Made by a program: the position numbers and the translations under genes. A DNA stretch of 48,377 nucleotides from Minisyncoccia bacterium (GTDB lineage Bacteria > Patescibacteriota > Minisyncoccia > Phycocordibacterales > UBA2100). Below are positions 11,642-27,579 of the stretch, piece by piece (position 1 is the first letter of the stretch; each line of letters starts with the position of its first letter). The stretch spans positions 1-48,377 of the forward strand of contig CBFHTW010000003.1 of the NCBI GenBank assembly GCA_965659025.1, written 5' to 3'. The notes under the pieces were generated by a model that saw only the letters and a program-made list of their open reading frames with translations, had not been told where the DNA came from and searched no databases.

Positions 11642-11900
11642 GTGGTTTGTTTATTTTCTTCGGCACAGACAGAAGAGATGGTACTACGTAGGTAGTACGA
11701 ATAATCTGATCAGACGACTTGGTGAACATAATGCTGGAAAAGTTAAATCTACAAAAGAGTATAGGCCACTAACGTTGGTTCATGAACTTTCGTTTGATAC
11801 AGAGAGGGAGGCGCGACTTTTTGAGCATAAAGTAAAGAAACAAAGATTGCTAAAAGAGCAAATTATTCGTACTATCGAGAAGCATTGGGGGATCGTCTAA
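11640..11900 (+). CDS. Small stand-alone GIY-YIG nuclease
   Basis: FVYFL..YYVGSTNNLIRRLGEHN..EARLFE. The last codons are encoded by the tRNA 5' end. Confidence 0.88.
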   Translation: MWFVYFLRHRQKRWYYVGSTNNLIRRLGEHNAGKVKSTKEYRPLTLVHELSFDTEREARLFEHKVKKQRLLKEQIIRTIEKHWGIV

Positions 11901-11956
11901 TGGTAGGACATCAGGTTTTGGTCCTGAGTATCGGGGTTCGAGTCCCTGTCCCCCAG
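11886..11956 (+). tRNA. tRNA-Gln(TTG)
   Basis: Acceptor TGGGGGA/TCCCCCA, anticodon arm TCAGG-TTTTGGT-CCTGA, T arm CGGGG-TTCGAGT-CCCTG. CCA not encoded. Confidence 0.95.
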
Positions 11957-13552
11957 CAAGCAAGGATTTTTGGAGTAGATTTCTCCATTATCCTTTGTAT
12001 CTCCTTGGTTTTCGGGCGGTTCTAACCCAGACGGAAGGTCGCGGATTATGTCCGCGGCTTTTCGTATTGGAACGAGCAGATTATCCAATGAAATCGTGAG
12101 TTTTCCGTCGAGAAGCGTGTAGTTCCAACCCAGCGCGGAGAATATCTCCCGCTTCGCCTCAATGAGCTTCTTTTCGCTTGCCTTGCTGAACGCGAGCGGC
12201 GCTTTCTCCGCGAAGTTGAAGCCCCGCTCGGCAATCTCGAGCCACGTGTCTATGCGCTTGTCTGTATCGCCCAGAAGCGCCTTGAGGCGTGCTTTCTCCG
12301 CAAGCAACGTCTCCTTGCGACCGCGGAACTCGTGCTCGTCAATCTCCAAGTTCGCTCGCATATCTATCAGGTTGTCTATCTTCCGCACACAGGCGTCGTA
12401 TTCGCGGCGCTGATTGCCCATCACCAACTCGCGGTCAGACACTTCCTGCCCGTTCTGTTCCTTGAGGCGCGACATCGCCCACGTCGTAAAGTCAGCGGGG
12501 ATGTTGAGCTTCTTCAACTCCGCATCTACCTGCTTCTCAAGTGCCTTTTCCTCGATGGACTTCTGCGAGCAGTTCGGGTTCTTCTTTTTCGTGCAATGGT
12601 AGTACGTGTAAGTTGCTACACCGCCGCTGGCGAGCTTTTTCATTTTTTCCTCGGCCGTAATGAGGGCTCCGCATTCACCACATCGTATCGGCCCCCTGTA
12701 CGCCATATCGCGTCGCTCCTTGGGGCGTGGGTTGCCGCGGCGACCGAGCAGGAACTGGATGCGGTCGTATTCCTCGCGGCTCATCAGCGGTTCGTGTAAT
12801 CCTGTGTACCACTTGCCGCTACCGACAGGGTACTCGAACTCACCGTAATAAAAGGGGCGGGTAAAGATATTGTAGATATTGCTGCGACTTATCTTCTTTC
12901 CGTTCAATGAACGCAGACCCCATTCATCTGTAGCAATGCGCCATATCTGCGGTGGCGTGTGATTTCCTGTGAGCATCAGGTCTACCATCTTCCGCAAAAG
13001 CGGGAAGCGTTCGGTGTCCGTATAGACCTTCTTCTTGCCGCGCTCTTCGTACTTGTCATTTTTGTAGCCAAGCGGAGCAGGCGCTGGGTAATAGCCCATC
13101 TTCGCTTTCTGTTCAAGACCGCGCTTCACATCGCGGCCTTTCTTCGCACTTTCGTACTGCGATTGCGAGAGCGCCATCTGTAGCATCCAAATACCCTCTG
13201 GTGAGTTGTTCTCGAAGTGGTACGTAGCGAACTTGAGGTCTGCAAGCTCTCCTGTGCGAAGCAGGTATGTAAGCGTGCTCGCGTCTACTTCGTTGCGGGA
13301 GAGGCGGTCAGGATGCCAAGCGAGAAGACCTGCACGTTCACCGTTGCGGATACGCAGGAGCATATCGCTGAACTTCGGACGGTTGTATGGAACGAAGGCG
13401 CTCTTTTCTTCGTCCACGAACTCAATGTCCAAATCAGGGAAGCGTTCGGAAAGCTGCGCTCGTTGCGCGGGTATGGAAAGTGCCTGTTTCTCCTTATCCT
13501 CGGAGGATTTGCGGAGGTAGGCAAAATAGCGGGTTTTTGCTGGTGTTTTCAT
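11897..13552 (-). CDS. Large serine recombinase (integrase)
   Basis: YLRKS catalytic motif, DRLSRN, recombinase domain, Zn ribbon CGECG..YYHC, coiled coil. C-terminus (GDRDSNP) is antisense to the tRNA. Start placed at ATG 13552. Confidence 0.93.
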   Translation of the reverse strand: MKTPAKTRYFAYLRKSSEDKEKQALSIPAQRAQLSERFPDLDIEFVDEEKSAFVPYNRPKFSDMLLRIRNGERAGLLAWHPDRLSRNEVDASTLTYLLRTGELADLKFATYHFENNSPEGIWMLQMALSQSQYESAKKGRDVKRGLEQKAKMGYYPAPAPLGYKNDKYEERGKKKVYTDTERFPLLRKMVDLMLTGNHTPPQIWRIATDEWGLRSLNGKKISRSNIYNIFTRPFYYGEFEYPVGSGKWYTGLHEPLMSREEYDRIQFLLGRRGNPRPKERRDMAYRGPIRCGECGALITAEEKMKKLASGGVATYTYYHCTKKKNPNCSQKSIEEKALEKQVDAELKKLNIPADFTTWAMSRLKEQNGQEVSDRELVMGNQRREYDACVRKIDNLIDMRANLEIDEHEFRGRKETLLAEKARLKALLGDTDKRIDTWLEIAERGFNFAEKAPLAFSKASEKKLIEAKREIFSALGWNYTLLDGKLTISLDNLLVPIRKAADIIRDLPSGLEPPENQGDTKDNGEIYSKNPCLLGDRDSNPDTQDQNLMSYH

Positions 13553-13700
13553 ATACGCGAAAGGGACGGTCTGGTTGACCCACTTACGATGCACCCCGAG
13601 GGATACCCATAGTGGCAGACCGCCCCTTTCGCGCCGCTATGGGTATAGAAAAATCTCGGGGGATACGCAAACGTAAGCAGGTCAACATAGCCATTATACC

Positions 13701-14825
13701 TCATTTTCCGTCAATAAGGCGCTTCAGGAACGCTCGTACGTCGTCAGGTATCTCGACCGTGCCGTTGCTGCTTTGGAAGTCGCGCAACTCTCGCACGATG
13801 TCTACGGCGCGTTCTACGCCCATACTACCGTAGCCGTATGCACCGAACGTGGTGCCGATGTTCTCGTGTCCGAGCGTCAAACTGATAGCCCGTTTTTCTT
13901 CCTCGGTGAGGCGCATCTTACTCATCAAGCTCACCACCAAGTGTCGGTACGAGTGAGGGTGGTAGTACTTCACGCCCGCGCCTTCGCACCGCTTCTCAAA
14001 TATCTTCCGAGCGCTTCCCGTATCGCTCCAAAAAGAGCGGCTGATACTTTCCTTACTGTAGGCCTTCTTCGTACTGATTTCGCTTGAGGTGGCGGGGAAG
14101 ATAGGGTCGTCTGGAGCAAATCCCTTGTTCTCCAAATACTCATACCACTCCAAGAAGTAGCGACTGGGTTCATCCCATCCGATAGGGAAAAATGTCGTGA
14201 TGATGGTCTTCGAGTTCTTCGTCCGTACGCCGTCCGCGGGGTTCTGGTGGATGCGGCGGGTCGCCTTGTCAAAACTCTTCATTTTGAGCGAGATGATGGC
14301 GCTGATGCGACAGCCCGTTATGAGGGCGAAGCTGATGAGCGCCCTGTCGCGTCTGCCTATCTCTGTCGCTGGGTCGATATTCTCGATTACTTGCTGCACC
14401 TCCTCAAGGGTAGGCATCGCTTTCGTTGTGCCCGCGAGGACTATCTGCATATCCTTCTTCGAGATACGCAGGAAATCGGCATCTCCTTTGACGAGCTTCT
14501 GGCTATACTCGGGCTGCCCAGCAAGCCAGAGGAAGAACTCTTTTACGCGCCGCAGGTAGTGATACCGCGTCGCGGGCTTGAGCGTTCCGTCGGGCGTCTT
14601 CGTCGCTTTCCGAATGAGCCACCCGCAGAATGCCATCGCTTTTGTCTTATCGAAAGTCGCGAAGTCCTCGTTATCGGAGAAAACCTGCCACTGACCGATG
14701 GCGTCGGCGTAGTCGTTTACGGACGCTTCCGTGAAGCCCTTTGCTCCGCGCAGGTGGTCGAAGAAGCCGCGCTTTGCCTGCTCGTTTCGGTATGGTGTTT
14801 TGTCTTGATGGCTGGGATTGCTCAT
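13701..14825 (-). CDS. Tyrosine recombinase/integrase
   Basis: RDRA..TGCRISA, HSYRH and LGH..TT..Y catalytic residues. Confidence 0.9.
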   Translation of the reverse strand: MSNPSHQDKTPYRNEQAKRGFFDHLRGAKGFTEASVNDYADAIGQWQVFSDNEDFATFDKTKAMAFCGWLIRKATKTPDGTLKPATRYHYLRRVKEFFLWLAGQPEYSQKLVKGDADFLRISKKDMQIVLAGTTKAMPTLEEVQQVIENIDPATEIGRRDRALISFALITGCRISAIISLKMKSFDKATRRIHQNPADGVRTKNSKTIITTFFPIGWDEPSRYFLEWYEYLENKGFAPDDPIFPATSSEISTKKAYSKESISRSFWSDTGSARKIFEKRCEGAGVKYYHPHSYRHLVVSLMSKMRLTEEEKRAISLTLGHENIGTTFGAYGYGSMGVERAVDIVRELRDFQSSNGTVEIPDDVRAFLKRLIDGK

Positions 14826-15060
14826 ATTCGTACAAACGGACATTTACATCTCAAATAACGATTTCTGATAGTACATCCACGTTTAGTCCTCGGTAGCGCA
14901 GGGCTGCTCTATTTTGTCCGATTGGCGGACGAAAGGGGGGCAGTCAGGTGCCACCAATCGGAACCCCTGTGCTAACGAGGACGTGGATGTACCATCTGGC
15001 TGTTCCCCTTTCGCATACTCGTGCGCAAGAGAGAACGAGTGCCAGACATAGCGTACATCT

Positions 15061-16851
15061 ATGTCTGAAAAATCATTACCATTACACAAAATCCAACAGG
15101 TAAAGGGGCGGCCGCTTTTGCATTGGGTCGGTAAGCGCCCTCTCGAGAGCGTTCAGTTTTTTCCTGCGCAAGAGAAAGAGGTATATGGCGACAAGAACGC
15201 CAAGGATTTCAATAAACTATTTTGGGGCGACAACCTCCAAGTGCTCTCGCATCTCATCAAGGATTACCGTGGCGCGATAGACCTCATTTACATTGACCCG
15301 CCGTTCGACAGCGCTGCGGACTACGTGAAGAAGGTCGTTATTCGTGGCCAAGAACTGAAAGGGGTGCAGCAGAGCGTCTTGGAAGAGGCGCAATATACCG
15401 ACATCTGGGAGAACGACGAATACCTCCAGTTTATATACGAGCGTCTCATTCTGATGCGGGAGCTTCTTTCCGAAAAGGGGAGCATCTACCTCCATTGCGA
15501 CAGTCATAAAAATGCCCACCTCCGCCTCATCCTTGATGAGGTGTTTGGAGAGAGCAACTTCCGCAACGAAATCGTGTGGCATTACCACGATAAGTTCGCT
15601 ACTGGTGGCAAATCGCTCGACCGAAATCACGACACCATTTATCACTACTCAAAGACCCCTGTCTTTACTGGGAACGAGATACGGGTCGAGAAGGAAGAAG
15701 CGACGCGCCGTGCGCTCCGTAAGAAGGTGAACGGCAAGACCGTGAACGTCTTGGACGACGAGGGCAATAAAATCTATGGTGAGTTCACGGACAAGCGCAT
15801 TGACGACGTATGGGACATCGGGAGGACAATCTCGAAGAACGAATATCTCGAATATCCGACGCAGAAAAAAGAAGAGCTCGTCGAGCGCATACTTCGCTAT
15901 GGCTCGAACGAAGGTGATATGGTCGCAGATTTCTTCGTGGGTTCTGGTACAGCCTGCGCGGTCGCGCAGCGGATGGGTCGTCGCTGGCTCGGATGCGACA
16001 TCAACGTAGGTGCAGTACAGACCAGCACCAAGCGGCTCGCTAAACTCGTCGAAGACCAACTCGCCGAAAAGCCCGAGAGCTTCAAGGGTTCGCTCGGCTT
16101 CAAGGTACTGAATGTGAACGAGTACGATGTGTTCAAGAACGAACTGGAGGCCAAGGAGGTTGTTATGGAGATTTACGGCGTAGAGCCAGTGAAGCGCTCA
16201 TACTTCGACGGCGTATTGGACGGCGACTATGTGAAAGTCCTGCCGCTCAATCGCGTGCTCGGCAAGATGGACATTCGCTCGCTCCTCAAGGGCATCGGTA
16301 ATGAACTCGACAACTTCACGAAGAAGACAGTAAGCAAGCACGGCGAAGCGATATACGAGGAGGATGTCATTGTTATTTGCTCGGGTATGGAGCTCGATGT
16401 ACGTGATTTTCTCAAGAAGGAAAATAAAACGGGCGTTTCGATAAAGCTATACGACATTCTGACCGATACCAAAGACCTCATCTTCAAGCAGTACCCAGAA
16501 AGTAGGGTAAAAGTCGTCGCGAAAGGTACGAACCTCGCTGTGGAGATTGAGGAGTTCTATTCGCCGCTCCTGATGCGCAAACTCGAACTCGAGAACGGCA
16601 AGATGCTCAAGAAAGAGCGCGAGGCGAAGGTCAGCGACTTCAAGCAAATCGTCGATAGCGTAGCCATTGACGTGGACTACGACGGTAAGCTCTTCAACGC
16701 AGAGGTGATGGACTTGCCGAACAAGAAAGAGGTTATCGTGGGCTCGTACGAGTGGGAGTACGCAAAGAAAGGCAAGTATACGGTCGCTATAAAAATCATA
16801 GACGTGCTCGGGGAGGAGTTCTTCGAGACGTACGACGTGGAAGCGAAATAA
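15061..16851 (+). CDS. mod: Type III R-M DNA methyltransferase (Mod)
   Basis: IYIDPPF catalytic motif precedes DFFVGSGT SAM-binding motif (beta class); YPTQK; upstream of res. Confidence 0.9.
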   Translation: MSEKSLPLHKIQQVKGRPLLHWVGKRPLESVQFFPAQEKEVYGDKNAKDFNKLFWGDNLQVLSHLIKDYRGAIDLIYIDPPFDSAADYVKKVVIRGQELKGVQQSVLEEAQYTDIWENDEYLQFIYERLILMRELLSEKGSIYLHCDSHKNAHLRLILDEVFGESNFRNEIVWHYHDKFATGGKSLDRNHDTIYHYSKTPVFTGNEIRVEKEEATRRALRKKVNGKTVNVLDDEGNKIYGEFTDKRIDDVWDIGRTISKNEYLEYPTQKKEELVERILRYGSNEGDMVADFFVGSGTACAVAQRMGRRWLGCDINVGAVQTSTKRLAKLVEDQLAEKPESFKGSLGFKVLNVNEYDVFKNELEAKEVVMEIYGVEPVKRSYFDGVLDGDYVKVLPLNRVLGKMDIRSLLKGIGNELDNFTKKTVSKHGEAIYEEDVIVICSGMELDVRDFLKKENKTGVSIKLYDILTDTKDLIFKQYPESRVKVVAKGTNLAVEIEEFYSPLLMRKLELENGKMLKKEREAKVSDFKQIVDSVAIDVDYDGKLFNAEVMDLPNKKEVIVGSYEWEYAKKGKYTVAIKIIDVLGEEFFETYDVEAK

Positions 16852-16854
16852 CGT

Positions 16855-17478
16855 ATGGAAATCGTCTACGTACTTACGAATGAAGCGATGGCTGGCTATG
16901 TGAAGATAGGCAGGACTACCACGAGCTTGGAGCAGCGCATCCGTGAGCTCAACTCCTCAACGAGCGTCCCGCTCCCGTTCACGGCGTTCTATGCGTGTAC
17001 AGTGCAGGACAGCACGTTCGTCGAACATCAGCTCCACGACGCTTTCGACGATAGTCGCATCAATCCACGGCGCGAGTTCTTCCGCATTGCGCCCGAGCGC
17101 GTTGTGGCGGCACTCAAGCTCGCACAGATAGAAGACATAACCCCGAAGCGTGATTACGTGGAGATGCCCGAAGACCAAGTGGCGCTCAACCGCGTCCGTG
17201 CCATACGAAGCAAGTTCAACTTCGGTATGGTTGATATTCCTATCGGTGCAGAACTCTCTTTCAGTCGTGATGAGAATATAAAGGCGCAGGTCGTTGACAC
17301 ACAATCCAAGAACTCCATTGAGTTCAGGGGCGAGATAACGAGCTTGTCGCGTGCCGCACAGAACATACTTGGTTTTGATTATGGTGTCGCGGGTACGGAC
17401 TACTGGATGTACGAGGGCGAGACACTCGACGAGCGCCGCAGACGGTTCGAGGGCGGCGAGGAACCTAATCAAGAATAG
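16855..17478 (+). CDS. GIY-YIG nuclease (T5orf172-like) with possible C-terminal RAMA-like domain
   Basis: IVYVLTN..YVKIGRT..RIREL..REFF. C-terminal SLSRAA..GTDYW.YEGETLDERR. Confidence 0.8.
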   Translation: MEIVYVLTNEAMAGYVKIGRTTTSLEQRIRELNSSTSVPLPFTAFYACTVQDSTFVEHQLHDAFDDSRINPRREFFRIAPERVVAALKLAQIEDITPKRDYVEMPEDQVALNRVRAIRSKFNFGMVDIPIGAELSFSRDENIKAQVVDTQSKNSIEFRGEITSLSRAAQNILGFDYGVAGTDYWMYEGETLDERRRRFEGGEEPNQE

Positions 17479-17480
17479 CG

Positions 17481-20012
17481 ATGGACAGCTCCTTCCTACA
17501 GAAAATCAAAGAACGGGTCGGCGAGTGGCGAAGTGGTGGCTACCAAGGCGTCGAGCAGGAAACCCTTACCATCCTCAAGTACATCAAAAGCGTACGTTTC
17601 CTCCACGCGCCGCAGGTAGAGGCACTTGAGACATACATCTATCTCAAGGAGGTCGTTGGTAATAAGCACTCACTGTCGGTCTTCCGCTCGCTTTTTGAGG
17701 ATGAGCGCGAACTCCTACGGGCACTCGGTACCTCTGATGCTGATGCGCTTGACATCGCGTACGACAAAGCGAAAGACGCGCGTATACAGGCGCTCCTTGA
17801 GAGTAAGTTCGGAAGCTCCGATTACGCCAATCAGGTCTATGCGCTGGCGATGGGCTCGGGCAAGACGATTTTGATGGCAACGATGATGCTCTACGATTTC
17901 GTGCTCTCGTACTACCATCCCGAGGACGAACGCTTCGCCAAGAACATACTCGTCTTCGCGCCCGATACGACCATCATAGACAGCTTGAAAGAGATAAAGA
18001 CCTTCGACTATACGAAAGTGCTCCCGAAGGGTTATCGCAATATCCTACTCAACATCAAGTATCACTATCTCGAAAGTCCCGATACACCGCTTTCTCCCAT
18101 CGGCAACTACAACATCATTGTCTCGAACTCACAGAAGATAATCCTCAAGCGCCGCAATACCACGAACCCTACAAAGTCGCTCTTTGCCGAGAAGTCGAAG
18201 CTCGAACGCCAGATGAGCGAGAACGGGCGTCTCGCCACTATCCGTCAACTCGAACGCCTCGCTATCTTCGTGGACGAAGCGCATCACAGCTACGGCAAGA
18301 CGATGGATAACGAGCTCAAGCGCACCCGAGAGACGATTGAATATCTCCACGGCAACAAGCCGCTCGTTTCGGTCGTGAACCTCACGGGTACGCCGTATGT
18401 GCAGAACAAAATGATTGCCGATGTCGTATATCACTTTGGCCTCAAGAGCGGTATTGAGAAAGGCATCTTGAAGCAGGTGCGTATCTTGGATTACGGGAAC
18501 GTGCGCGAGGAGAAGTTCGTGGAGGATGTCGTTGAGACATTCCTAAACGAGTACGGAGAGCACCGTCTCGAAGGCCGACTGCCCAAAATGGCGTTCTATG
18601 CAGCGAGCATCGCTGACCTTCGTGGCTTACGGCAGGTGGTAGAGCGTACGCTTGCCAGTAAGGGGATAGCCCTCGACAAGGTACTCGAATATCACACGGA
18701 AGCGGAGGAGAATAAGGATGAGTTCCAAAAGCTCGACACCGCCGAAAGTAATAAGCAGTTCGTACTTCTCGTCGGCAAGGGAACGGAGGGCTGGAACTGT
18801 CGCTCGCTCGTAGCGTGCGCCCTTTACCGCGAGCCAAAGAGTACCATCTTTGTCCTCCAATCCTCGACGCGCTGCCTTCGCGCTATCGGCGACAACTCCA
18901 CTGTTGCCCGCATCTTCCTCTCAAAGGATAACTACAAAGTGCTCGATAAGGAGCTCAAAAATAACTTCGATACCAGCGTCGCAGAGCTTTCCGCTCAAGA
19001 CCAGAAAGCGATTGACCACGAGCTCAAGGTGGAGCGCCGCAAGAAGGTAAAAGTAAAGAAAGTACTCAAAGAGATGGCGACCGCGGAAGCAGTGGATACG
19101 AGTGGCATCAAGCTCGACTTTAGCAAGTTCAAGGCATCAGAATATCTTTCATTCGTTGGCGAGGGAGGTATCCTCGTGAACGATGATGGTCGTGCGGGGT
19201 ACACCGAGGCGCGTGCAAATCGGCGAGTGGAGGATACACAAAATCTGACATTCTACGAGATAGCGGAGGTCATAAATCGCTATACGCACCTATCGTGCTC
19301 CTCCATTGCGGACATCATCGAGCGGAGCGGCAAGACACGCACCGAGCTCGTACAGCAAGCCAATGAAAGTCCAGCACTCATTCCATTCCTCGTGCAGGAA
19401 GTTCTCGAAAAGGCGTACCGCTACGAATGGCGCGAGGAGACGATTGAGGAAGAACTTGAGCTCACAAAGCTCTACCCGTTCAAGATAACCGTCCAGCACG
19501 ACCGTAATATCCTCGTCGTCTACAAGGAGCAAGAGGAGCAGGACGGCCACAAGAGCCGCATCGGTTTCCATATCAACCCGTACAACTTCGACAGTAGCGA
19601 CGAAAAGGACTTGTTCCGCTATCTCCGTGATTATCTCAAGGAGGACGAAGCCGTGGTGGACGTGTATTTCACGGGTGGCGTGATAGACGCGATACACAAC
19701 GATTTTTATTTCGAGTATTGGAACCCAGAACGTCAGTGCTACGCACGGTATTTTCCTGACTTCTTGGTAGAGACGACGAAGGGTCGCTATCTCATCATCG
19801 AGGTAAAGAGCAATGCCGAGCGTATGGACTACGAGGCAAACGCCAAGAACTACACGGGCAAGGTGGAGGAGCTCACGAACGAGGTCTTTGCCAAGCAGGT
19901 CGGCTTCGAGGAGTTCCAAAAGACAAACGCGAACTTCGAGTACCGCATCATTTTCAACGCAGGTATCCAAGCGGAGCAAGCACGGTTGCTCGAGGAAGTG
20001 CGCTCGCTATGA
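17481..20012 (+). CDS. res: Type III R-M restriction subunit (SF2 helicase plus PD-(D/E)xK nuclease)
   Basis: AMGSGKT, DEAH, TGTP, EGWN, and C-terminal YFPDFLV..IIEVK. Confidence 0.9.
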   Translation: MDSSFLQKIKERVGEWRSGGYQGVEQETLTILKYIKSVRFLHAPQVEALETYIYLKEVVGNKHSLSVFRSLFEDERELLRALGTSDADALDIAYDKAKDARIQALLESKFGSSDYANQVYALAMGSGKTILMATMMLYDFVLSYYHPEDERFAKNILVFAPDTTIIDSLKEIKTFDYTKVLPKGYRNILLNIKYHYLESPDTPLSPIGNYNIIVSNSQKIILKRRNTTNPTKSLFAEKSKLERQMSENGRLATIRQLERLAIFVDEAHHSYGKTMDNELKRTRETIEYLHGNKPLVSVVNLTGTPYVQNKMIADVVYHFGLKSGIEKGILKQVRILDYGNVREEKFVEDVVETFLNEYGEHRLEGRLPKMAFYAASIADLRGLRQVVERTLASKGIALDKVLEYHTEAEENKDEFQKLDTAESNKQFVLLVGKGTEGWNCRSLVACALYREPKSTIFVLQSSTRCLRAIGDNSTVARIFLSKDNYKVLDKELKNNFDTSVAELSAQDQKAIDHELKVERRKKVKVKKVLKEMATAEAVDTSGIKLDFSKFKASEYLSFVGEGGILVNDDGRAGYTEARANRRVEDTQNLTFYEIAEVINRYTHLSCSSIADIIERSGKTRTELVQQANESPALIPFLVQEVLEKAYRYEWREETIEEELELTKLYPFKITVQHDRNILVVYKEQEEQDGHKSRIGFHINPYNFDSSDEKDLFRYLRDYLKEDEAVVDVYFTGGVIDAIHNDFYFEYWNPERQCYARYFPDFLVETTKGRYLIIEVKSNAERMDYEANAKNYTGKVEELTNEVFAKQVGFEEFQKTNANFEYRIIFNAGIQAEQARLLEEVRSL

Positions 20013-20128
20013 CCGAGCCCGAGCCGTTATCGGGGGAGGACATTGGAGAGCTTGCGGAGTTCTTCGACCTGCTGGCGCGGTTCGATTACGAGGATAAAAT
20101 AAGAGAAGGGGCGACACTTGACAAGTAG
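20009..20128 (+). CDS. 39-aa small ORF coupled to res
   Basis: ATGA overlap with the res stop. Reads MTEPEPLSGEDIGELAEFFDLLARFDYEDKIREGATLDK. Confidence 0.5.
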   Translation: MTEPEPLSGEDIGELAEFFDLLARFDYEDKIREGATLDK

Positions 20129-20147
20129 GTATATTGTGTAGTATACT
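20118..20147 (+). promoter_or_regulatory. Sigma70 promoter of the DGR target gene
   Basis: TTGACA-N18-TATACT. Confidence 0.75.
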
Positions 20148-20304
20148 CGTCCCAAGTTCTTTGACTTTCAACTTGCAGGTTTGCCGCAGCAGAGAGCGGC
20201 CGATATTCGGCCTCCGTCTGCTACGGCAAACCCTCGACCCGAGGGAGCCCGCTGGCACCAATGCGTACTTGTCCGAAAGGGCTCATTCGCAAAGGAGAAA
20301 AACT

Positions 20305-20883
20305 ATGAGCGACCTTACGCTCGATGTTGGTCTTGCCGCCAAACTCAAGGTGGCGTTCGCACGCAACGGCTGGACGGAGCAACTGATTGACGCGGCCTGC
20401 GAAGGCGACAAGCTCGGTCAGTTCAAGCAAGTCCTGCTCGGCCACGCCGCCATCAATGTCGTCGAACACGTCATTGACTGCGACGCGCAACCCTTCGTTC
20501 CCGATGGCTGGTCTGTCGAGGAGCATCAGAAGGGCGGCGCGTTCAAGTGGGACAAAGCAACCCAGAAGGACGCCCTCTACCTCTCGAAAGGTCAGGCGGG
20601 CAGCAAGTACATCGAGGGCAACAAGCTCCGCAAGGAGCTCTCGGACAAGAGCACGCCCGTGCTCAACGCCAACGTCCTCGACTACCTGCTCGCCAACCCG
20701 CACCTCATCCCCGAGGAGTGGAAGGGCAAATACGTCTTCTTCTGGGGGACGGTGTACCGCGGCCGCGGTGGCGGCCTGTACGTCCGCTGCCTCTGCTGGG
20801 GCGACGGCAGGTGGGACTGGAGCGGCGACTGGCTCGGCAGCGGCTTCGACGGCAACGACCCCGCCGCGGTGCGTGCAAGTTGA
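20305..20883 (+). CDS. DGR target protein (192 aa) with C-terminal variable region
   Basis: SD AAGGAG before ATG 20305. The last ~41 codons match TR with adenine-only differences. No signal peptide evident. Confidence 0.92.
   Translation: MSDLTLDVGLAAKLKVAFARNGWTEQLIDAACEGDKLGQFKQVLLGHAAINVVEHVIDCDAQPFVPDGWSVEEHQKGGAFKWDKATQKDALYLSKGQAGSKYIEGNKLRKELSDKSTPVLNANVLDYLLANPHLIPEEWKGKYVFFWGTVYRGRGGGLYVRCLCWGDGRWDWSGDWLGSGFDGNDPAAVRAS
20754..20878 (+). repeat. DGR variable repeat (VR)
   Basis: 125-bp ungapped match to 21201-21325 with 19 mismatches, all opposite TR adenines. Confidence 0.97.
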
Positions 20884-20934
20884 ACTTGGTGCTCTGAACC
20901 TCTGAACCCTTGGGCTCTTGGTTCTTTGCACTTT

Positions 20935-20960
20935 GACCCGCGCTGGAAACGGCGCGGGTC
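20935..20960 (+). other. Post-VR hairpin with GAAA loop (DGR target-recognition element and/or terminator)
   Basis: GACCCGCGCTG-GAAA-CGGCGCGGGTC, ~55 bp after VR. Confidence 0.7.
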
Positions 20961-20967
20961 TTTGCTT

Positions 20968-20976
20968 TGCTATACT
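20968..20976 (+). promoter_or_regulatory. Extended -10 promoter, candidate start of the TR RNA
   Basis: TGCTATACT about 225 bp upstream of TR. Confidence 0.45.
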
Positions 20977-21200
20977 CAAGAAAGGCGGTAGGTGAATACG
21001 CGGGCGATTACGGTTTCCCGCTACCGATGCCAGTGCGCGTACGTCGAGAGCGTTCCCGATTACGGTTTGGAGCGGAGTGGCGCACGAGGCACTCAAAAGT
21101 ATGAAGATACTTGGTGTGGGATGCTATGCGAGTGTAGCTCGCGAATACGATACAACCTCAAGAGTATTCAAGAGGTGGTGGTACGGACGGCATCCCATAC

Positions 21201-21325
21201 GAACCGCAACCGCGATGGCAACCTGTACGTCCGCTACCTCTACTGGAACGACGGCAGGTGGAACTGGAGCAACAACTGGCTCGACAACGACTTCAACGGC
21301 AACAACCCCGCCGCGGTGCGTGCAA
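21201..21325 (+). repeat. DGR template repeat (TR)
   Basis: Adenine-rich copy of VR with 11 AAC codons, followed by hairpin ACCCCGC-TAACT-GCGGGGT at 21341-21359. Confidence 0.97.
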
Positions 21326-21346
21326 CTCTCTTCACTTCTCACCCCG

Positions 21347-21739
21347 CTAACTGCGGGGTTGAGTTTTGGTGAGCTGCCCGCTCCAACCGCCGAGCATCTT
21401 GCCGATTTCCTCCACCTTCAAGGAAAGCAGGCCGTACTTGTTCGTATCAATAGATTTCGTCTCCCACAACACCATCAGGAGCACTTTGAGTGTATCTGTC
21501 TTTCGTATCGCTGCGCGGACGTAGGGGCGTTTTTCCTCTCGCGAGAGAAAACTCGCCGATGCTATCATTTCCATAATCTCAATGAACAATGTATCTATAC
21601 GCTGACCGAGTGAGTGCCTATGGAGTTTGGGCAGTATTTGATAGAACGCGTACCACTGGAGGTACGCCGCTTTCACGCTCTGTAAAAGAGGCAAGAGCTT
21701 CGGGGGGGGGGTAGATTTATGGCTATCAAACTCGCTCAT
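21347..21739 (-). CDS. avd: DGR accessory variability determinant (Avd-like four-helix bundle), opposite strand
   Basis: 130 aa, basic, LPK..R..LG..I and EIGKMLGGW motifs. Start placed at ATG 21739. Confidence 0.85.
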   Translation of the reverse strand: MSEFDSHKSTPPPKLLPLLQSVKAAYLQWYAFYQILPKLHRHSLGQRIDTLFIEIMEMIASASFLSREEKRPYVRAAIRKTDTLKVLLMVLWETKSIDTNKYGLLSLKVEEIGKMLGGWSGQLTKTQPRS

Positions 21740-22720
21740 TCCTACGAGAGTATCATCTCGCTGGATAATCTCCTCGAAGCGTGGTGTGAGTTTGTGCGCG
21801 GCAAGAGAAAGCGGAAAGATGTGCAAGAGTTCGAGCTTCGCTTGATGGATAACGTCCTCTCACTCCACAGGGATTTACGCGAAAAGACCTACACCCATTC
21901 TGACTACGAGGCGTTTAGCATCTCCGACCCTAAACCGCGCAACATACATAAAGCGAGTGTGCGCGACCGTCTCCTTCATCACGCGATTTACCGTCTGCTA
22001 TATCCGTTCTTCGACAAGGGTTTCGTGGGAAGTTCGTACTCGTGCAGAAAGAGTAAGGGCACGCATAAAGCGATTGAGCACTTTCAGCAGCTCGCGTATA
22101 GCGCATCTCATAATCACACGCGCACTGTGTGGGTGCTGAAATGCGACGTGCGTAAGTTCTTTGCATCCATAGACCAAGAGCGTCTTCTGCGGATACTCGA
22201 GACGCGCATACCAGACAGCGAAGTACTTTGGCTTCTCGGGCAAATCGTACGCAGCTTCGAGAGTACGGGAACGGGCTTCGGCTTGCCCCTCGGGAACCTG
22301 ACCTCGCAGCTCCTCGTGAATATCTATATGAACGAGTTTGACCAGTTCGTGAAGCACACGCTCAAATCGAAGGCCTATGTGCGATACGCGGACGATTTCG
22401 TACTCCTATCTCGAGACAGGGCAGAACTTGAGCAGCAACTCCCGCGCATCGAGGCGTTTCTTTGGGACGAGCTGCGGCTTACGCTCCACCCCGACAAAGT
22501 GTTCATCAAAACGCTGGCGTCAGGCGTGGACTTTCTCGGGTGGGTGCATTTCCCTGACCATCGCGTTGTCCGTACGACCACCAAGCGTCGTATGCATCGC
22601 CGTCTCGAGCAGATGGAGTGGAAGGAACAGAGCGTCCAGTCGTATCTTGGCCTCTTGAGCCACGGTAATGCGGCGAAGCTACAGCAGCGGATTAGGCGGC
22701 AGCAAGCAGCTCGGGAATAG
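21719..22720 (+). CDS. DGR reverse transcriptase
   Basis: RDRLLHHA, KCDVRKFF, GLPLGNLTSQ (DGR-type GxxxSQ), YVRYADD and DFLG motifs. No maturase or endonuclease extension. Confidence 0.96.
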   Translation: MAIKLAHSYESIISLDNLLEAWCEFVRGKRKRKDVQEFELRLMDNVLSLHRDLREKTYTHSDYEAFSISDPKPRNIHKASVRDRLLHHAIYRLLYPFFDKGFVGSSYSCRKSKGTHKAIEHFQQLAYSASHNHTRTVWVLKCDVRKFFASIDQERLLRILETRIPDSEVLWLLGQIVRSFESTGTGFGLPLGNLTSQLLVNIYMNEFDQFVKHTLKSKAYVRYADDFVLLSRDRAELEQQLPRIEAFLWDELRLTLHPDKVFIKTLASGVDFLGWVHFPDHRVVRTTTKRRMHRRLEQMEWKEQSVQSYLGLLSHGNAAKLQQRIRRQQAARE

Positions 22721-22915
22721 CGATTTTGTAGCGAAACTCGGACTTTCCCTCCAAAAGGACGGTTCTAACTTCGTCCAATGCCCGCAGCCGCGTAAAGACT
22801 CGCAAGGCCTCGTCCACGCGGCTTCGCCAGTCGTGCAAGTCGATATTGTGCGTACATATCCAAAGTAGTAGTCTTTACGCGAGCCACGTGGTGAGTCCGC
22901 GAACTTTACGTGGCC

Positions 22916-23185
22916 ATGTATATGTATTGGACATACATTCTCGAAAACCAGGATGATAAAAGTTGGTATATTGGATATTCTTCCGATCTGAAACAACGGC
23001 TTAAAACACACCAAGCAAAACGGGGTGGTCAGACAACCAGTCGAAAAGAAAATTGGAAGTTGATGTATTGTGAGGGATATTTAAGCAAAGCAGATGCGGA
23101 AGGCAGAGAACGGTTTCTAAAAAGCGGTGCGGGTCGGAAGTTTATAAAGAAGCAACTTGTAAATTATTTAAGCCAATCAGTTTGA
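22916..23185 (+). CDS. Small stand-alone GIY-YIG nuclease
   Basis: WTYIL..WYIGYSSDLKQRLKTH..AEGRERFLKSGAG. Confidence 0.88.
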   Translation: MYMYWTYILENQDDKSWYIGYSSDLKQRLKTHQAKRGGQTTSRKENWKLMYCEGYLSKADAEGRERFLKSGAGRKFIKKQLVNYLSQSV

Positions 23186-23229
23186 GATAGATTCCCTGGC
23201 CGGACAGGCGGACTCCGAGGAGCATAAAT

Positions 23230-23649
23230 ATGACACCAGAAAATCAAGCTACAATAATAGGAATAGCCGGGACACTTTTGGGTGTTCTTGCCGGAGCAAT
23301 TCTGAATCATTTTTTAGAAAGGAATAGAAACAAGAGAACACTAATTCTAAATAAAAAGATCGATATTTATTCATCTCTTCTAGTTAAATTGAATACAGTA
23401 TTTCAGGATAGTGAAAATAATATTATTACAAACCCCCATTTCAAAAAGACAATTCATACCATATTAGCTAAATCTCTTTCCGAGGCTAGATTAATTGCCG
23501 GTAGAAAACTCGAATCGAAGTTAAGAGATTATTACGAAGAAACCGTCCTTTTCTGGGAACAGGGGAAAAATGATGACGTGTTACCTAAAATAGTTATTGA
23601 GATTGAACAATTAATGCGTGAAGAAATTGGCCAAAAACGTTTACATTAA
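23230..23649 (+). CDS. AT-rich hypothetical protein with N-terminal TM helix
   Basis: SD GAGGAG, TM segment IIGIAGTLLGVLAGAIL, visibly low GC. Confidence 0.7.
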   Translation: MTPENQATIIGIAGTLLGVLAGAILNHFLERNRNKRTLILNKKIDIYSSLLVKLNTVFQDSENNIITNPHFKKTIHTILAKSLSEARLIAGRKLESKLRDYYEETVLFWEQGKNDDVLPKIVIEIEQLMREEIGQKRLH

Positions 23650-23885
23650 ATCATTCCGAGGAACGTCAAAATGGTAGAATAGAAATAGCGTCAGAAAAGC
23701 CTTGTGGGGATTAATAGAGAATTATCCGAATCCGATGAGGTCAGTCGAGTAGTGAGACCGACCGAGTCTCCTAAGATCGTCATATTTTGCAACGTATCTT
23801 GAGAACGAGTCATGGACTCGAACTTTGGGTAAATCACAAGATTCTATTCTGTTATTGCACACCTACTGAGAGCAGTATTCAGAGC

Positions 23886-23926
23886 AAAAAATAGAGTCGG
23901 CCTTTCGGTCGACTCTTTTTGCTTTT
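23886..23926. terminator. Bidirectional intrinsic terminator
   Basis: AGAGTCGGCC-TTTC-GGTCGACTCT flanked by A and T tracts. Confidence 0.75.
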
Positions 23927-23940
23927 TACTTTGACAGCCG

Positions 23941-24672
23941 TCAGGCTGCTTTTTCAGTTGGCGATGTCATCTCCGATTGCTCGGGCAGGCGATAGCCTCG
24001 GCCCCACACTGTCTCGATGAATTTTTCCGAGTCAGGGTGGACATCCATCAGCTTGCGCCGGAGCTTGCAGACGAACACGTCGATAATCTTCATTTCCGGC
24101 TCGTCCTCCACACCGCCCACGTACATCTGCGTCAGGATCATCTCCTTCGACAACACGCGACCGGGACTCGTTGCGAACAAAAGCATCATTGTCAATTCCT
24201 TGCCGGTGAGGTGTACCGGGAAGCCGTTGATCAGCACCGACTTGGTCGTCAGATTGATCTTGAGCTTCGCTTCGCCGTTTTGGTACTCGACGATGTCGAG
24301 CAGCGATCCTTTGAACCGCCTCGTGACGGCACGGAGCGACGCAACCAACTCGCGGGGATTGACTGGTCCGCGAATCAAATCGTCGCCGCCATTTTCCAGG
24401 AACACCGCTCGTTGATCGCCCCATACCCGATCCTCCGATCCGCGCGAGATGCCGATGATTGAAGTCGCGATCTTCTTCACTCGCAGACCGCGAGCGGCGT
24501 AAATGCCAAGACCGCTTTTCTCCAGATCAAGCACGCCCGCGTCGTATAGGCCGTCTTGGAGCCAGATCTGTAAGTCCTCGGCGTCCTCGACATCCTGTTT
24601 CTCGACGGCAATGCCATTGTCCCGCAAGAAAACGATCGTGGTGTCGTCGAGTCCCGCTGATAGGACTTTCAT
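23941..24672 (-). CDS. OmpR-family response regulator with CtrA-like DNA-binding domain and degenerate receiver
   Basis: VHLTGKE..KEM..Y..DEPEMKIIDVFVCKLRRKL..IETVWGRGY. SD AGGGAG. Confidence 0.85.
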   Translation of the reverse strand: MKVLSAGLDDTTIVFLRDNGIAVEKQDVEDAEDLQIWLQDGLYDAGVLDLEKSGLGIYAARGLRVKKIATSIIGISRGSEDRVWGDQRAVFLENGGDDLIRGPVNPRELVASLRAVTRRFKGSLLDIVEYQNGEAKLKINLTTKSVLINGFPVHLTGKELTMMLLFATSPGRVLSKEMILTQMYVGGVEDEPEMKIIDVFVCKLRRKLMDVHPDSEKFIETVWGRGYRLPEQSEMTSPTEKAA

Positions 24673-24797
24673 GCCATATCTCCCTGTTTGAAGAGCTTCA
24701 GATTCCTACTTCTAAAGCAAAATAAATCACAGGTCGGCTTCTTTGTCTACGCAAAGAAAAAGGCCCCCGAAGGAGCCTTGGCCGAAGCCACAGTAGT

Positions 24798-25736
24798 TCA
24801 CTCGCCCTTGATAGACTTGTGCATCTCGTTGAGATAGCCGATGAGTTGCTGCAAGAGCTTAGCATCCTGCTCGCGATCGGCGATCTCGTCGTCTCGCGTC
24901 CTGTAAAGCTCATTGAGGTTGAGCCCTTGGTGGATGCGACGAGCACGATTGAGCGTTCCGCCAACGAAGTTCTTGAACGCTTTGTAGTCGTCGGAGGGTT
25001 TTCGCATCCTACCGCCGACACCGTAACCACTCTTGCCAGTTCGCACCGAGATGAGCGCCCGCGTTTCGACGATGCCGAGGTTGCGTTCAATGGCTTCCTT
25101 GGCGATCATGAGCTGCAAGTTCGTATCGGTCGTGCTCCGTGCAATGTCAATCGCCGCCGTGGTGGTCAACCGTTCGTCCTTGGTCCGCAATGGGTCCATG
25201 AACTTCTTGACCTGATCCGGCAACGAATGCATGTAAACATAGTTCTCAACATGCGTGACCGACTTTTTGACCGTCGCGGCGATCTCCACGATTTTTGCAT
25301 GATGGCTTTGAGCCGTGCTTTCATCGTAAAGACGTTTGTACGCCGCCGCTTCATCCAGCGGAACGAGATCTTCGCGGTGAAGGTTATCGAGAAGCGCCTC
25401 TCGGAAGTGGTGCCGCTCGTCGTGGACGATGTCGATGAAGCACTTGACGATGGGATCGGTGTCGCTGCGGTCTTTGATGAGGCCGAACGCTCTCCATCGA
25501 CGTTCGCCGCCGATGAGCACGAATACCCCACCCTGTGTTGAGTGCTTGCACACTCTCACCGGAGTCTTCTGGCCGTTGGTTGAGATGTCATCGGCGAGGT
25601 CTTCAAGACCTTTCTGATCGAAGTAGCGTCGAGGTTGGCCCTCGAAGCGCATGATTCGACTGAGCTTAACTGGGAGTGGCTGACCAAGTCCGCTCTCCTC
25701 GCCATTTTCAACAACGCGCAGTGCTGACTTGTTCAC
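24798..25736 (-). CDS. ParB/Spo0J-family protein
   Basis: QPRRYF, GGERRWRA (GxRR) and DNLHREDL motifs. SD GGGAGG, GTG start. Confidence 0.88.
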   Translation of the reverse strand: MNKSALRVVENGEESGLGQPLPVKLSRIMRFEGQPRRYFDQKGLEDLADDISTNGQKTPVRVCKHSTQGGVFVLIGGERRWRAFGLIKDRSDTDPIVKCFIDIVHDERHHFREALLDNLHREDLVPLDEAAAYKRLYDESTAQSHHAKIVEIAATVKKSVTHVENYVYMHSLPDQVKKFMDPLRTKDERLTTTAAIDIARSTTDTNLQLMIAKEAIERNLGIVETRALISVRTGKSGYGVGGRMRKPSDDYKAFKNFVGGTLNRARRIHQGLNLNELYRTRDDEIADREQDAKLLQQLIGYLNEMHKSIKGE

Positions 25737-25977
25737 ATGAGCCTCCCTTGGCTGGATTGACCTTGAAGATCAGTACTGAAAAGGATAATGACATAAGTCA
25801 GCTTTTTGGGCAACGATCTCTCAAAAATCACAAGCTCTGCAAATCAGTGCTAGAGACTAGTGGTAAATATGCGTTTTCCCTTAATAGCGATCTGCTTTTA
25901 AGACAGCTTAGCAGTTCTCTTTTTTAATCAGCGCCCTCTTCTCTCAATAAGTACTTCGTGTGGTACTGTTCTAATAT

Positions 25978-26292
25978 ATGAATCCATACATAAGTGCTGG
26001 GGCGGCGAGTGCGTATATTGCGCTCATTGCGTTGTTTTTTAGTTACGTGCCACATTTTGAGTCGCAGGGTAGTCCGGCCTTTGCGGCCTTTACCATGCTC
26101 TCGCTGTTGGTGCTCTCTGTCGCGGTGATGGGATTTTTGTTTTTCTATGAGCCACTTAGTTTGTACATGGAGGGGAGACGCGCTGAATCCATCAAACATT
26201 TCTTTCGGACGATAGTGATGTTTGCGTGTATTGTGATTACGGTTTTTGCCACGGTGATTTTTGTTCTGCCTTTGTTTGGCGGTGTGGCGTGA
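25978..26292 (+). CDS. Small membrane protein
   Basis: Three hydrophobic segments. Confidence 0.65.
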   Translation: MNPYISAGAASAYIALIALFFSYVPHFESQGSPAFAAFTMLSLLVLSVAVMGFLFFYEPLSLYMEGRRAESIKHFFRTIVMFACIVITVFATVIFVLPLFGGVA

Positions 26293-26352
26293 GTGGGTTG
26301 GTATTGAAAAAGGGTACACCCGCCAAGGCATGCCTTGGTGGGTGTGTATGTC

Positions 26353-26952
26353 TCAGGCTTCAATGCCCCGTTCGGCCAAAAGAAGTCTGATGATAGGGAT
26401 GGTACGGAACTCCGATGTCGCCGCCTTCATAAAGACGACCACACGAACAATGTCACGAATTGCGCCTTCAAGTTTGTTCTGGTCGGCGTATGTGGCAGTG
26501 ATGGAGCTCCACCCAAACCGCATCAGATCTTCGTCGGCGCGAGCGATGCCGATTGCGAACGCGATATGACTTGCGAGGCACGCGCGCGTCTTGCCGAGCG
26601 AACGTACGAATCGCGCCCATTGGTATCCCCAATGCGCCCACTCCGCCGGAGAGATATCCCGCTTTATGGCACGTGTGAAGAGCACAACTTCCAAGATCAT
26701 AGATTTCCACTGCCATTCTGGTTCATGTGCTCGGCGCAACTCGCGCTCAATGGCCGCCTGGTGATGTTCCTGACAGTGGTCGCACTGATAGTAGATGGCG
26801 AGCGCGTACGCGATGTATTCGCGCACCAAAACTGGCAACGTAAACGAATCCGATTCCCCAGGCACACCCGAAAACGCGTGGGCATGAAGCTCTTGGAGCA
26901 CGCCACTGAACGCATTGCCAGGAATGGGGGCTTTTGCAGGATTGTTCTGCAT
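26353..26952 (-). CDS. Hypothetical protein, AhpD/carboxymuconolactone decarboxylase-like
   Basis: REYIAYALAIYYQCDHCQEHH matches the E..A......CxxC..H pattern. Confidence 0.55.
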   Translation of the reverse strand: MQNNPAKAPIPGNAFSGVLQELHAHAFSGVPGESDSFTLPVLVREYIAYALAIYYQCDHCQEHHQAAIERELRRAHEPEWQWKSMILEVVLFTRAIKRDISPAEWAHWGYQWARFVRSLGKTRACLASHIAFAIGIARADEDLMRFGWSSITATYADQNKLEGAIRDIVRVVVFMKAATSEFRTIPIIRLLLAERGIEA

Positions 26953-27096
26953 GGTCTCAACCTTTCTATGGGGAATGTTTGTCCGGTGCGCATACTAGGC
27001 CAGGCGAGCGGTATGTGCAAATATGAAGAATAATTATTACAGGGCGGGAGTTGTTCCCGCCTCGTTTTTTCTTCCCATTGCCATAAGGTACACTGT

Positions 27097-27579
27097 ATGA
27101 GTATGAACATCCGTGACACTGTGAAGTGTGGGGTGTCGCTCGTAATACCTCAGATTGCGGGAGCTGTGGGTTCGCTGTTTACCATGCCAGCGATAGCTGG
27201 TTGGTACGCTTCGCTTGTGAAACCGGAGCTTGCGCCGCCCAACTGGGTGTTTGCTCCCGTGTGGACGACTATCTTTTTTCTGATGGGCTGGGCACTGTTT
27301 TTGATCTGGCGTGAGAATACTTCTCGTACAGAGGTGCAATTTGCACTTGGTATGTTTGGCATACAGCTCGCATTGAACGTATGTTGGTCATTCTTGTTCT
27401 TCGGCACACAAGACCCCAGAGCGGCATTTTTTGAAATTACTGCCCTTTGGCTCGCGATCGCCGCCACGATAGTAGCGTTTGCGTATGTTTCTCGCGTAGC
27501 GGCTTGGCTCCTTGTTCCATATATCGCGTGGGTGAGTTTTGCGGCATACCTCAACTATTCCATTTGGATGCTCAACTAA
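27097..27579 (+). CDS. tspO: TspO/MBR tryptophan-rich sensory protein
   Basis: WYASLVKP..PPNWVFAPVWT, QLALNVCWS and PYIAWVSFAAYLN motifs. Confidence 0.92.
   Translation: MSMNIRDTVKCGVSLVIPQIAGAVGSLFTMPAIAGWYASLVKPELAPPNWVFAPVWTTIFFLMGWALFLIWRENTSRTEVQFALGMFGIQLALNVCWSFLFFGTQDPRAAFFEITALWLAIAATIVAFAYVSRVAAWLLVPYIAWVSFAAYLNYSIWMLN

Follow-up and report, generated by a model that had tools for sequence, protein, structure and literature searches.

The stretch of DNA analysed here, called the window, comprises the 48,377 nucleotides of contig CBFHTW010000003.1 from assembly GCA_965659025.1 of a Minisyncoccia bacterium. The genome amounts to 533 kb in 39 contigs at a completeness of 88.9%, and the window is its contig C3. 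It carries a gene for a protein similar to CtrA, which acts as the master switch of the cell cycle in Alphaproteobacteria; together with SciP, CtrA counts as a hallmark of cell-cycle control in this class. This CtrA-like gene probably encodes a CtrA-descended transcription factor whose receiver has ceased to be switched by phosphorylation. The gene and the two domains of its product are located as follows.

23941..24672, minus strand: CtrA-like regulator gene, an open reading frame (ORF) of 243 amino acids (aa) with an ATG start, encoding a pseudo-receiver and a CtrA-type winged helix.
24307..24672, minus strand: pseudo-receiver, residues 1-122, assigned from alignments, the secondary structure of the predicted model and the missing Response_reg match.
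23983..24267, minus strand: DNA-binding winged helix, residues 136-230, whose recognition helix and wing are of the CtrA type, assigned by identity comparison.

A previous sequence-only reading of this DNA had described the C-terminal domain as closely following CtrA, including the recognition helix, and identity comparisons bear this out. Residues 136-230 are 56% (44-60) identical to 12 true CtrAs versus 29% (26-33) to six generic OmpR-family references, and over the recognition helix and wing (residues 188-229) the values are 69% versus 35%. The receiver part (residues 1-122) is 33% identical to the same CtrAs versus 28% to the same references, and the whole protein is ~40% identical to true CtrA. 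In the alignment, the consensus KIIDVFVCKLRKKL...IETVWGRGY is the same in the pseudo-receiver family and in the CtrA matches, and the recognition helix and wing of the CtrA-like protein itself (DEPEMKIIDVFVCKLRRKL...IETVWGRGY) track bona fide CtrA. T168, T170 and the conserved stretch 167-191 are named as DNA-binding determinants of CtrA in an excerpt of one study (PMC6847485), and the CtrA-like protein has Val and Ser at the columns aligned with T168 and T170. The sole Pfam domain of the protein is Trans_reg_C (PF00486; residues 152-229, 64.5 bits). Among NCBIfam models, CtrA (NF045991) ranks first with 142.7 bits and OmpR second with 79.4 bits; the equivalog cut-off of NF045991 is 350 bits, so that the protein scores below it, and true CtrAs reach 355-444 bits. 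By sequence, the PDB matches are generic regulators of the OmpR family, with E-values of 1e-13 or weaker.

The Pfam scan did not match Response_reg in the CtrA-like protein. Its AlphaFold2 model, derived from a 36-row alignment (predicted local distance difference test, pLDDT, 90.1), has a complete (beta-alpha)5 domain and then a winged helix. Foldseek matched this model to the full-length OmpR-family regulators PrrA, KdpE, MtrA and PmrA (template modelling score, TM, 0.68 for PmrA) and also to HP1043 (PDB 2hqr) and RitR (PDB 5u8k/5vfa), and isolated receiver domains of the PDB were matched at TM ~0.8 and a root-mean-square deviation of 2.5 Å. Because of the predicted fold and this superposition, the N-terminal half is taken as a domain that has the fold of a receiver but whose active site has decayed. 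With Trans_reg_C placed after a receiver-fold domain, the protein has the architecture of the OmpR/PhoB family.

The decay concerns specific residues. The sequence-only reading had stated that the receiver keeps the Asp of a VLDL motif and lacks the conserved Lys (RGP for KP), and both statements were correct: Asp49 stands at the phospho-acceptor column in the alignment with the family and CtrA, and Gly102 (RGP) occupies the column of the conserved Lys, which is TKP in CtrA. In addition, Leu8 is found at the first acidic, Mg-binding column of the pocket, so that neither the acidic pocket nor the Lys is intact. Ser76 and Asp9 are preserved, and strand 4 and helix 4 are separated by an insertion of five residues that includes an invariant Trp84. 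In its degenerate phospho-pocket and in having no cognate kinase gene at its side, the protein agrees with the atypical, phosphorylation-independent OmpR-family regulators. According to an excerpt of PMC9437464, alphaproteobacterial CtrAs share ~74% mean mutual identity, retain D51 as well as the acidic pocket, and recognise TTAA-N7-TTAA. Asp49 aligns with D51 of Caulobacter CtrA as given there; with ~40% against ~74% identity, the CtrA-like protein is not a CtrA orthologue in the sense of that excerpt.

The protein belongs to a larger family. A word-indexed protein search gave 7253 matches among 8000 scored candidates, and an exhaustive search of 50%-identity representatives returned 56 proteins at E<=1e-30. 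The CtrA-like family comprises more than 100 clusters at 40-85% identity; the matches listed, which are the best 120, span 85% to ~36% identity, and 108 of them are without a precomputed Pfam receiver. Names among these 120 include Candidatus Kaiserbacteria, Paceibacterota, Parcubacteria and an automatic 'CtrA' from the Joint Genome Institute (JGI). For the family alignment, 227 returned proteins of 200-300 aa, the CtrA-like protein and 10 reference regulators were combined (238 rows), and 142 family rows, the CtrA-like protein included, were picked by the insertion Trp, which served as a working label only. The phospho-acceptor column of these 142 rows holds Asp in 91, Asn in 35, His in seven and other residues in nine, hence 51 lack the Asp; Lys is found at the Lys column in a single row, and the first acidic column is Leu, Val or Ile in 130. 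Seven rows inside the family clade retain Asp and Lys yet miss the first acid, which suggests that the family receiver may have eroded stepwise.

These columns bear on the possibility that the CtrA-like protein is still a working response regulator, in which Asp49 would be phosphorylated, for example by a seven-transmembrane (7TM) kinase, and the preceding Arg would replace the Lys. Asp49, Ser76 and Asp9 are retained, the residue immediately preceding the lost Lys is Arg or Lys in 102 of the 142 rows (Arg 86, Lys 16), seven members of the family clade have both Asp and Lys, and one orphan kinase is present in the genome. This protein of 524 aa, of the 7TM type, is the genome's only HisKA/HATPase kinase and is encoded on contig C1; the remark in the sequence-only reading that no kinase is nearby holds, as none is encoded within the window. 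A working receiver is, however, hard to reconcile with the family counts (51 rows without Asp, 130 with a hydrophobic residue in place of the first Mg-binding acid, one with Lys), with the unmatched Pfam receiver model, with a kinase on another contig and with ChpT not being found. There is also a more obvious kinase partner, namely the genome's only true receiver, a stand-alone protein of 137 aa on contig C2. This receiver adjoins a T2SS-E/pilus-type ATPase, which hints at a role of the single 7TM kinase in the control of pili instead of in that of the CtrA-like protein. A response regulator that still works by phosphorylation is thus considered rather improbable. The receiver and ATPase genes form a pair at C2:31776-33263 on the minus strand. 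The CtrA-like protein is the sole Trans_reg_C protein of the genome. At 88.9% completeness, ChpT (PF10090), GcrA, DUF1153 (SciP-like) and ParA-type AAA_31 were not found in the genome; CckA was not searched for.

The relationship to CtrA was further analysed by model scores and a tree. An NCBIfam scan of 40 proteins covered 36 canonical-receiver matches, an annotated Azospirillum CtrA, two neighbours from the candidate phyla radiation (CPR) and one phage CtrA; 12 scored at or above the CtrA cut-off, 20 had CtrA as best model at 213-348 bits, and eight gave no match at E<=1e-35. The tree was calculated from 111 rows by an IQ-TREE quick search (LG+C20 PMSF) with branch support from the Shimodaira-Hasegawa-like approximate likelihood ratio test (SH-aLRT). 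Six references (OmpR, VirG, PcoR, VanR, BaeR and a PhoP-like protein) split from all other rows with an SH-aLRT of 100, so the CtrA-like protein branches with CtrA and, in this quick search with six outgroups, its family does not group with generic OmpR regulators. The pseudo-receiver family is a clade of 72 rows (SH-aLRT 99, stem length 0.69), which under rooting with the six references emerges from canonical CtrA rows that form a grade with little resolution. That the protein could be a generic OmpR-family regulator with a CtrA likeness by chance or convergence might be argued from an overall identity to true CtrA of only ~40% and from a score far under the CtrA cut-off. However, the CtrA model scores nearly twice as high as the next model, the closest matches outside the family are CtrA (best model in 32 of the 40 scanned proteins), the references are split off at full support, and SciP-like genes adjoin the regulator in related loci, all of which makes this idea hardly credible.

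A scan of species-representative genomes with a pattern from the family alignment, which was a single peptide pattern and not exhaustive, yielded 15 related loci, all from CPR metagenome-assembled genomes (MAGs). The genome studied here had been suspected to belong to the CPR, and its size of 533 kb and the Kaiserbacteria and Paceibacterota names of the homologues are consistent with this. No close relatives of the family were found in IMG/VR (five weak loci) or in phage or plasmid collections, where the best match was an annotated Azospirillum CtrA at 39% identity. The literature search found no paper on CtrA in Parcubacteria, the candidate phyla radiation or Patescibacteria, and none on DUF1153. 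The CtrA-like family is CPR-specific (Paceibacteria-type) and previously undescribed, and it is diversified and co-diversified with a ParB paralog. Horizontal acquisition, as proposed in the sequence-only reading, is supported insofar as the relationship to alphaproteobacterial CtrA is seen in the NCBIfam ranking, the tree and the SciP-like neighbours; an acquisition that is recent or private to this genome is not, since the family has diversified within the CPR.

Small DUF1153 genes adjoin the regulator in related loci, and the five that were scanned match only the NCBIfam model 'CtrA inhibitor SciP' (NF051866). By tblastn, a SciP-like gene is located beside the regulator in nine of the 15 related loci; by Pfam, SciP-like proteins occur in 10 of the 15 related genomes (64-93 bits); nine of these matches are strong and lie no more than ~450 bp from the regulator. 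A CtrA-like gene with a canonical receiver, scoring 238-310 bits on the CtrA model, is additionally present in three of the 15 genomes, and in the tree these canonical-receiver CPR copies sit among ordinary CtrAs, apart from the pseudo-receiver clade. Two loci have all components together.

L015:5894-8723: SciP-like, canonical ctrA-like, ParB2 and pseudo-receiver copy; CtrA model 238 bits.
L023:8001-9851: SciP-like, canonical ctrA-like, ParB2 and pseudo-receiver copy; CtrA model 291 bits.

The gene order in L015 is sciP-like, canonical ctrA-like, parB2 and pseudo-receiver ctrA-like. None of the 15 related carrier genomes yielded a ChpT (PF10090) match; CckA was not searched for. The genome studied here has the regulator and ParB2, and as a SciP-like gene was not found in it, a CtrA-SciP pair is not seen there. 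Downstream of the CtrA-like gene, a GIY-YIG nuclease gene (22910-23185, plus strand) and a 139-aa ORF without family matches (23230-23649, plus strand) are located; this is the position of the sciP-like gene in relatives, and the local GC content falls to 46%.

Upstream of the CtrA-like gene and on the same strand, the following features were assigned.

24722..24749, minus strand: probable promoter belonging to the CtrA-like gene itself, with a -35 element TAGACA and an extended -10 element TGaTTTATT, inferred by eye from a 12-locus spacer alignment.
24760..24779, minus strand: intrinsic-terminator-like hairpin directly after parB2; hairpin and T-run are conserved in related loci.
24798..25736, minus strand: ParB2, a divergent ParB paralog of 312 aa with GERRxRA and QPR boxes; Pfam ParB_N and HTH_ParB, TIGR00180 at 90 bits.
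25737..25860, minus strand: parB2 promoter and leader (TTGCC ... CATTAT, -10-like), assigned by eye.
~25754-25774, minus strand: near-palindromic element ACTGATCTTCAAGGTCAATCC in the parB2 leader, assigned by eye.

The second-ranking NCBIfam model of ParB2 is Noc with 81 bits. A ParB-like gene encoding 300-330 aa lies directly upstream of the regulator on the same strand in 13 of the 15 related loci, and across loci the identity of the linked ParB to ParB2 of the window (39-73%) follows that of the regulator. A canonical ParB is also encoded elsewhere in the genome studied here and in all five other genomes checked; canonical ParB reaches ParB_N scores of 92-102 bits versus 29-44 for the linked paralog. 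The ParB2 family comprises ~100 clusters with a sharp boundary, many of them on contigs equal in length to regulator-bearing ones, and its C-terminal region (RKPSDDY...) is conserved and particular to ParB2. With ParB_N, GERRxRA and a ParB helix-turn-helix (HTH), ParB2 is, by its predicted domains, a member of the ParB clamp family that carries the cytidine triphosphate (CTP) box.

The spacer between parB2 and the regulator contains, in most loci, a terminator hairpin followed by a promoter with a TTGACA-like -35 element and an extended -10 element resembling TGnTTTACT. The promoter at 24722..24749 was not flagged by a consensus scan; related loci have a promoter of the same type at the same place. 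The gap between the two genes shrinks to 18 bp in L015 and 12 bp in L025, and in these two only. Strings like ACTGATCTTCAAGGTCAATCC were found at the same place in L014, L017, L024 and L018, and they are not consistent across loci; the element may be a candidate operator or ParB2 loading site. TTTAC and TTAACC strings near the CtrA-like promoter, noted by eye, are likewise inconsistent across loci.

Whether the CtrA-like gene really belongs to this genome was assessed by aligning contigs from four sequencing runs of four studies to the window. In three of the four runs, single contigs run from 22781 to 27434, 27954 or 28455 at high identity and take in the GIY-YIG gene, the 139-aa ORF, the CtrA-like gene, parB2 and more. 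As three independent assemblies span 22781 to at least 27434 in single contigs, the stretch around the CtrA-like gene is not chimeric, which settles a doubt expressed in the sequence-only reading. Aquatic and wastewater environments are the habitats in which it is found. A TspO/MBR family membrane protein (171 bits), present in this 533-kb CPR genome, is encoded at 27097-27579 on the plus strand of the window. A 33-bp GC-rich palindromic hairpin at 27925-27957 is repeated at C7:3149-3181. Other assemblies branch at this hairpin, which resembles a shared terminator or a repetitive extragenic palindromic (REP)-like element; it was considered as an attachment (att) site and rejected as being a repeated GC hairpin.

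A mobile element does occur further to the left in the window.

11886..11957, plus strand: tRNA-Gln, integration site of the island, given as context and outside the module.
11950..22780, no strand: 10.8-kb island in the tRNA-Gln 3' end, defined by contig ends and junction sequences of independent assemblies.
11897-13594, minus strand: serine recombinase of the island.
13701-14843, minus strand: tyrosine integrase of the island.

Besides the two recombinases, the island cargo includes a DNA N6/N4 methylase, T5orf172, ResIII and a diversity-generating retroelement (DGR). In two runs the 3' part of tRNA-Gln joins position 22781 directly, hence 11950-22780 is an island absent from other populations. 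Its att core is short and imperfect (TGTCCCCCAGC versus TGCCCGCAGCC). The DGR extends over 20134-22720, with a reverse transcriptase (21719-22720, plus strand), a bAvd-like gene (21347-21826, minus strand) and a target gene (20134-20883, plus strand), the 3' end of which (20756-20878) shares 85% identity with a template-like repeat at 21203-21325. The CtrA-like gene is not part of the island and is located 1.2 kb past its right end, in the shared backbone.

With such an island nearby, parB2 and the ctrA-like gene, with or without sciP, could be a maintenance or control module of a mobile element, i.e., an integrated plasmid or cassette, with a KorB-type ParB and a small repressor. The conserved ParB partner, the sparse distribution among relatives, the place directly beside a tRNA-Gln integration hot spot and, in L013, an excisionase-type HTH_17 gene upstream of parB2 would fit such a module. 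In contrast, the island ends at 22780 in independent assemblies and leaves the module in the shared backbone, no flanking copies of the tRNA tail were found, and 123 neighbouring ORFs from the 15 loci are mostly housekeeping, with no replication, integrase or conjugation match; the searches of IMG/VR and of phage and plasmid collections, which gave no close relatives, point the same way. This explanation is regarded as unlikely. The CtrA-like gene as cargo of a mobile element was rejected on the same grounds (no tRNA-tail copies, no close IMG/VR, phage or plasmid relatives, the island end at 22780) and for the lack of long bounding direct repeats.

The best reading of these results is that the CtrA-like protein would be a CtrA-derived, phosphorylation-independent regulator acquired long ago, and a number of observations weigh against it, among them those on DNA targets. 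The sequence-only reading had assumed retained DNA specificity and called for a genome scan, in which TTAA-N7-TTAA occurs 0 times in 533 kb, with ~0.5 expected from the TTAA frequency (503 TTAA). A conserved box was found neither in the region preceding parB2 nor in the spacer that separates parB2 from the regulator. As target sites were not found, DNA binding and its specificity are deduced from homology, and retained specificity in particular from the conserved helix. Whole-genome counts of TTAA pairs at spacings N3-N18, as well as the positions that half-sites and dyads take with respect to genes, gave no signal. A half-site motif, which we take to be TTAACCAT, occurs three times in the genome, once in an intergenic position.

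Related genomes gave the same picture. TTAA pairs at N5-9 were rarer than a reversed-pattern control in 14 of the 15 related genomes, a control that is imperfect because TTAA is generally under-represented; in G445, the one genome listed in full, N7 accounts for seven of 48 TTAA pairs at N5-9. No TTAA-N7-TTAA with at most one mismatch was found upstream of nine sciP-like genes. As a positive control, the Azospirillum ctrA promoter (66% GC, seven TTAA in 6.7 kb) has a cluster of three one-mismatch N7 boxes; positions 23601-26100 of the window have one such box. A canonical CtrA-box regulon was thus rejected, with boxes absent from the genome, without excess in 14 of the 15 relatives and missing from the examined promoters, and the assumption of CtrA-box specificity is not supported.

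The lack of CtrA boxes in the CPR genome itself is one of the points that could speak for a mimic, i.e., a CtrA-like protein delivered into an alphaproteobacterial host of the CPR cell, where it would hijack CtrA-controlled genes. The near-identical recognition helix and the receiver-less CtrA-like proteins of phages of Alphaproteobacteria would also be in line with it. However, no export signal or delivery system was seen, although neither was searched for, and the link to a cytoplasmic ParB paralog, to a SciP-like gene and sometimes to a canonical CtrA-like gene looks like an internal circuit. The sequence-only reading had hinted at such a host or at a secreted mimic; no evidence for either was found, and we consider a mimic very improbable.

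Further points against a CtrA-derived, phosphorylation-independent regulator concern its history and its partners. The protein query matched one of 40 sampled relatives (weakly, 33% identity) and none of 400 genomes of the same class, and the family profile matched two of 40 relatives of another carrier (G441), both weakly; so sparse a distribution would fit vertical inheritance with loss as well as transfer among CPR. The tree, from a quick search with six outgroups only, has a weakly supported backbone (SH-aLRT 80-87) and many open forks, and organism names are available on two canonical CtrA rows only (Oceanibacterium and Azospirillum), for which reason the direction of transfer is inferred. 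The SciP-like proteins score 66-83 bits, below the NF051866 cut-off of 100. As a terminator and a promoter lie in between, parB2 and the regulator are a conserved tandem and not a tight operon in most loci. Finally, Asp49, Ser76 and one pocket acid remain in the CtrA-like protein, and judged by its sequence it may retain residual phosphorylation.

If a CtrA-derived regulator of this kind is nevertheless assumed, an ancestor of CPR lineages would have taken up an alphaproteobacterial-type CtrA-SciP pair, and the CtrA copy would have been freed from kinase control. Its activity would then be set by its own promoter and by its partners, SciP-like where present and possibly ParB2. The protein would be on DNA as a constitutive OmpR-type dimer, and its sites would not be canonical TTAA-N7-TTAA and maybe single or differently spaced half-sites. 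In the genome studied here, the regulator would act unopposed because the SciP-like partner is missing. A more far-reaching proposal is that some CPR bacteria captured the alphaproteobacterial CtrA-SciP switch, removed the kinase relay from it and wired it to a dedicated CTP-dependent ParB clamp, giving a new module without a kinase which would connect the state of the chromosome with a developmental or attachment programme of these ultra-small episymbionts, the genome studied here being a natural SciP-less variant; this is tentative and appears doubtful at present.

If the derivation from CtrA is true, a CtrA circuit has crossed a very deep phylogenetic boundary and was then rebuilt without phosphorylation. 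The CtrA-like family would provide a concrete and testable origin for one of the few regulators in tiny, regulator-poor CPR genomes, and since a ParB paralog is its constant companion, a CTP clamp and a transcription factor may be linked here. Automatic 'CtrA' labels on CPR MAGs, such as the JGI names, should not be taken to indicate a CckA-ChpT-CtrA cell cycle.

Compared with known systems, the CtrA-like protein shares with alphaproteobacterial CtrA (NF045991) the OmpR-type architecture, 69% identity in helix and wing, a common branch and, in relatives, a SciP-like neighbour. It differs in the loss of the Lys and of one pocket acid and in its CPR host, and neither ChpT nor TTAA-N7-TTAA was found. 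SciP itself (NF051866, DUF1153) is resembled by the neighbours in nine of the 15 related loci, of which the five scanned match only NF051866; these neighbours differ from SciP in scores below the cut-off of 100, and none was found in the genome studied here.

With HP1043 (2hqr) and RitR (5u8k/5vfa), which from PDB entry titles and general knowledge we take to act without phosphorylation, the protein has in common a full receiver fold, a degenerate phospho-pocket, no adjoining kinase and a winged-helix output. These two are not CtrA-derived, whereas the CPR family has a Trp insertion and a conserved ParB-paralog neighbour. The phage 'CtrA' proteins (roseophages RDJL Phi 1 and Phi 2, Paracoccus phage vB_PmaS-R3 and Rhodobacter Rc phages) are similar in having a CtrA-type DNA-binding domain freed from kinase control and are 42-51% identical to the DNA-binding domain of the window, with 68% over helix and wing for RDJL Phi 2. 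In contrast to the CPR protein, they are short and receiver-less (151 aa in RDJL Phi 2) and occur in phages of Alphaproteobacteria including Rhodobacterales. ParB2 resembles the ParB-family CTP clamps KorB and Noc in its GERRxRA and QPR boxes and in having a DNA-binding regulator as a fixed neighbour, and it is distinguished from them by its own conserved C-terminal region. The pair of ParB2 and the CtrA-like protein may be analogous to KorB and KorA of plasmid RK2.

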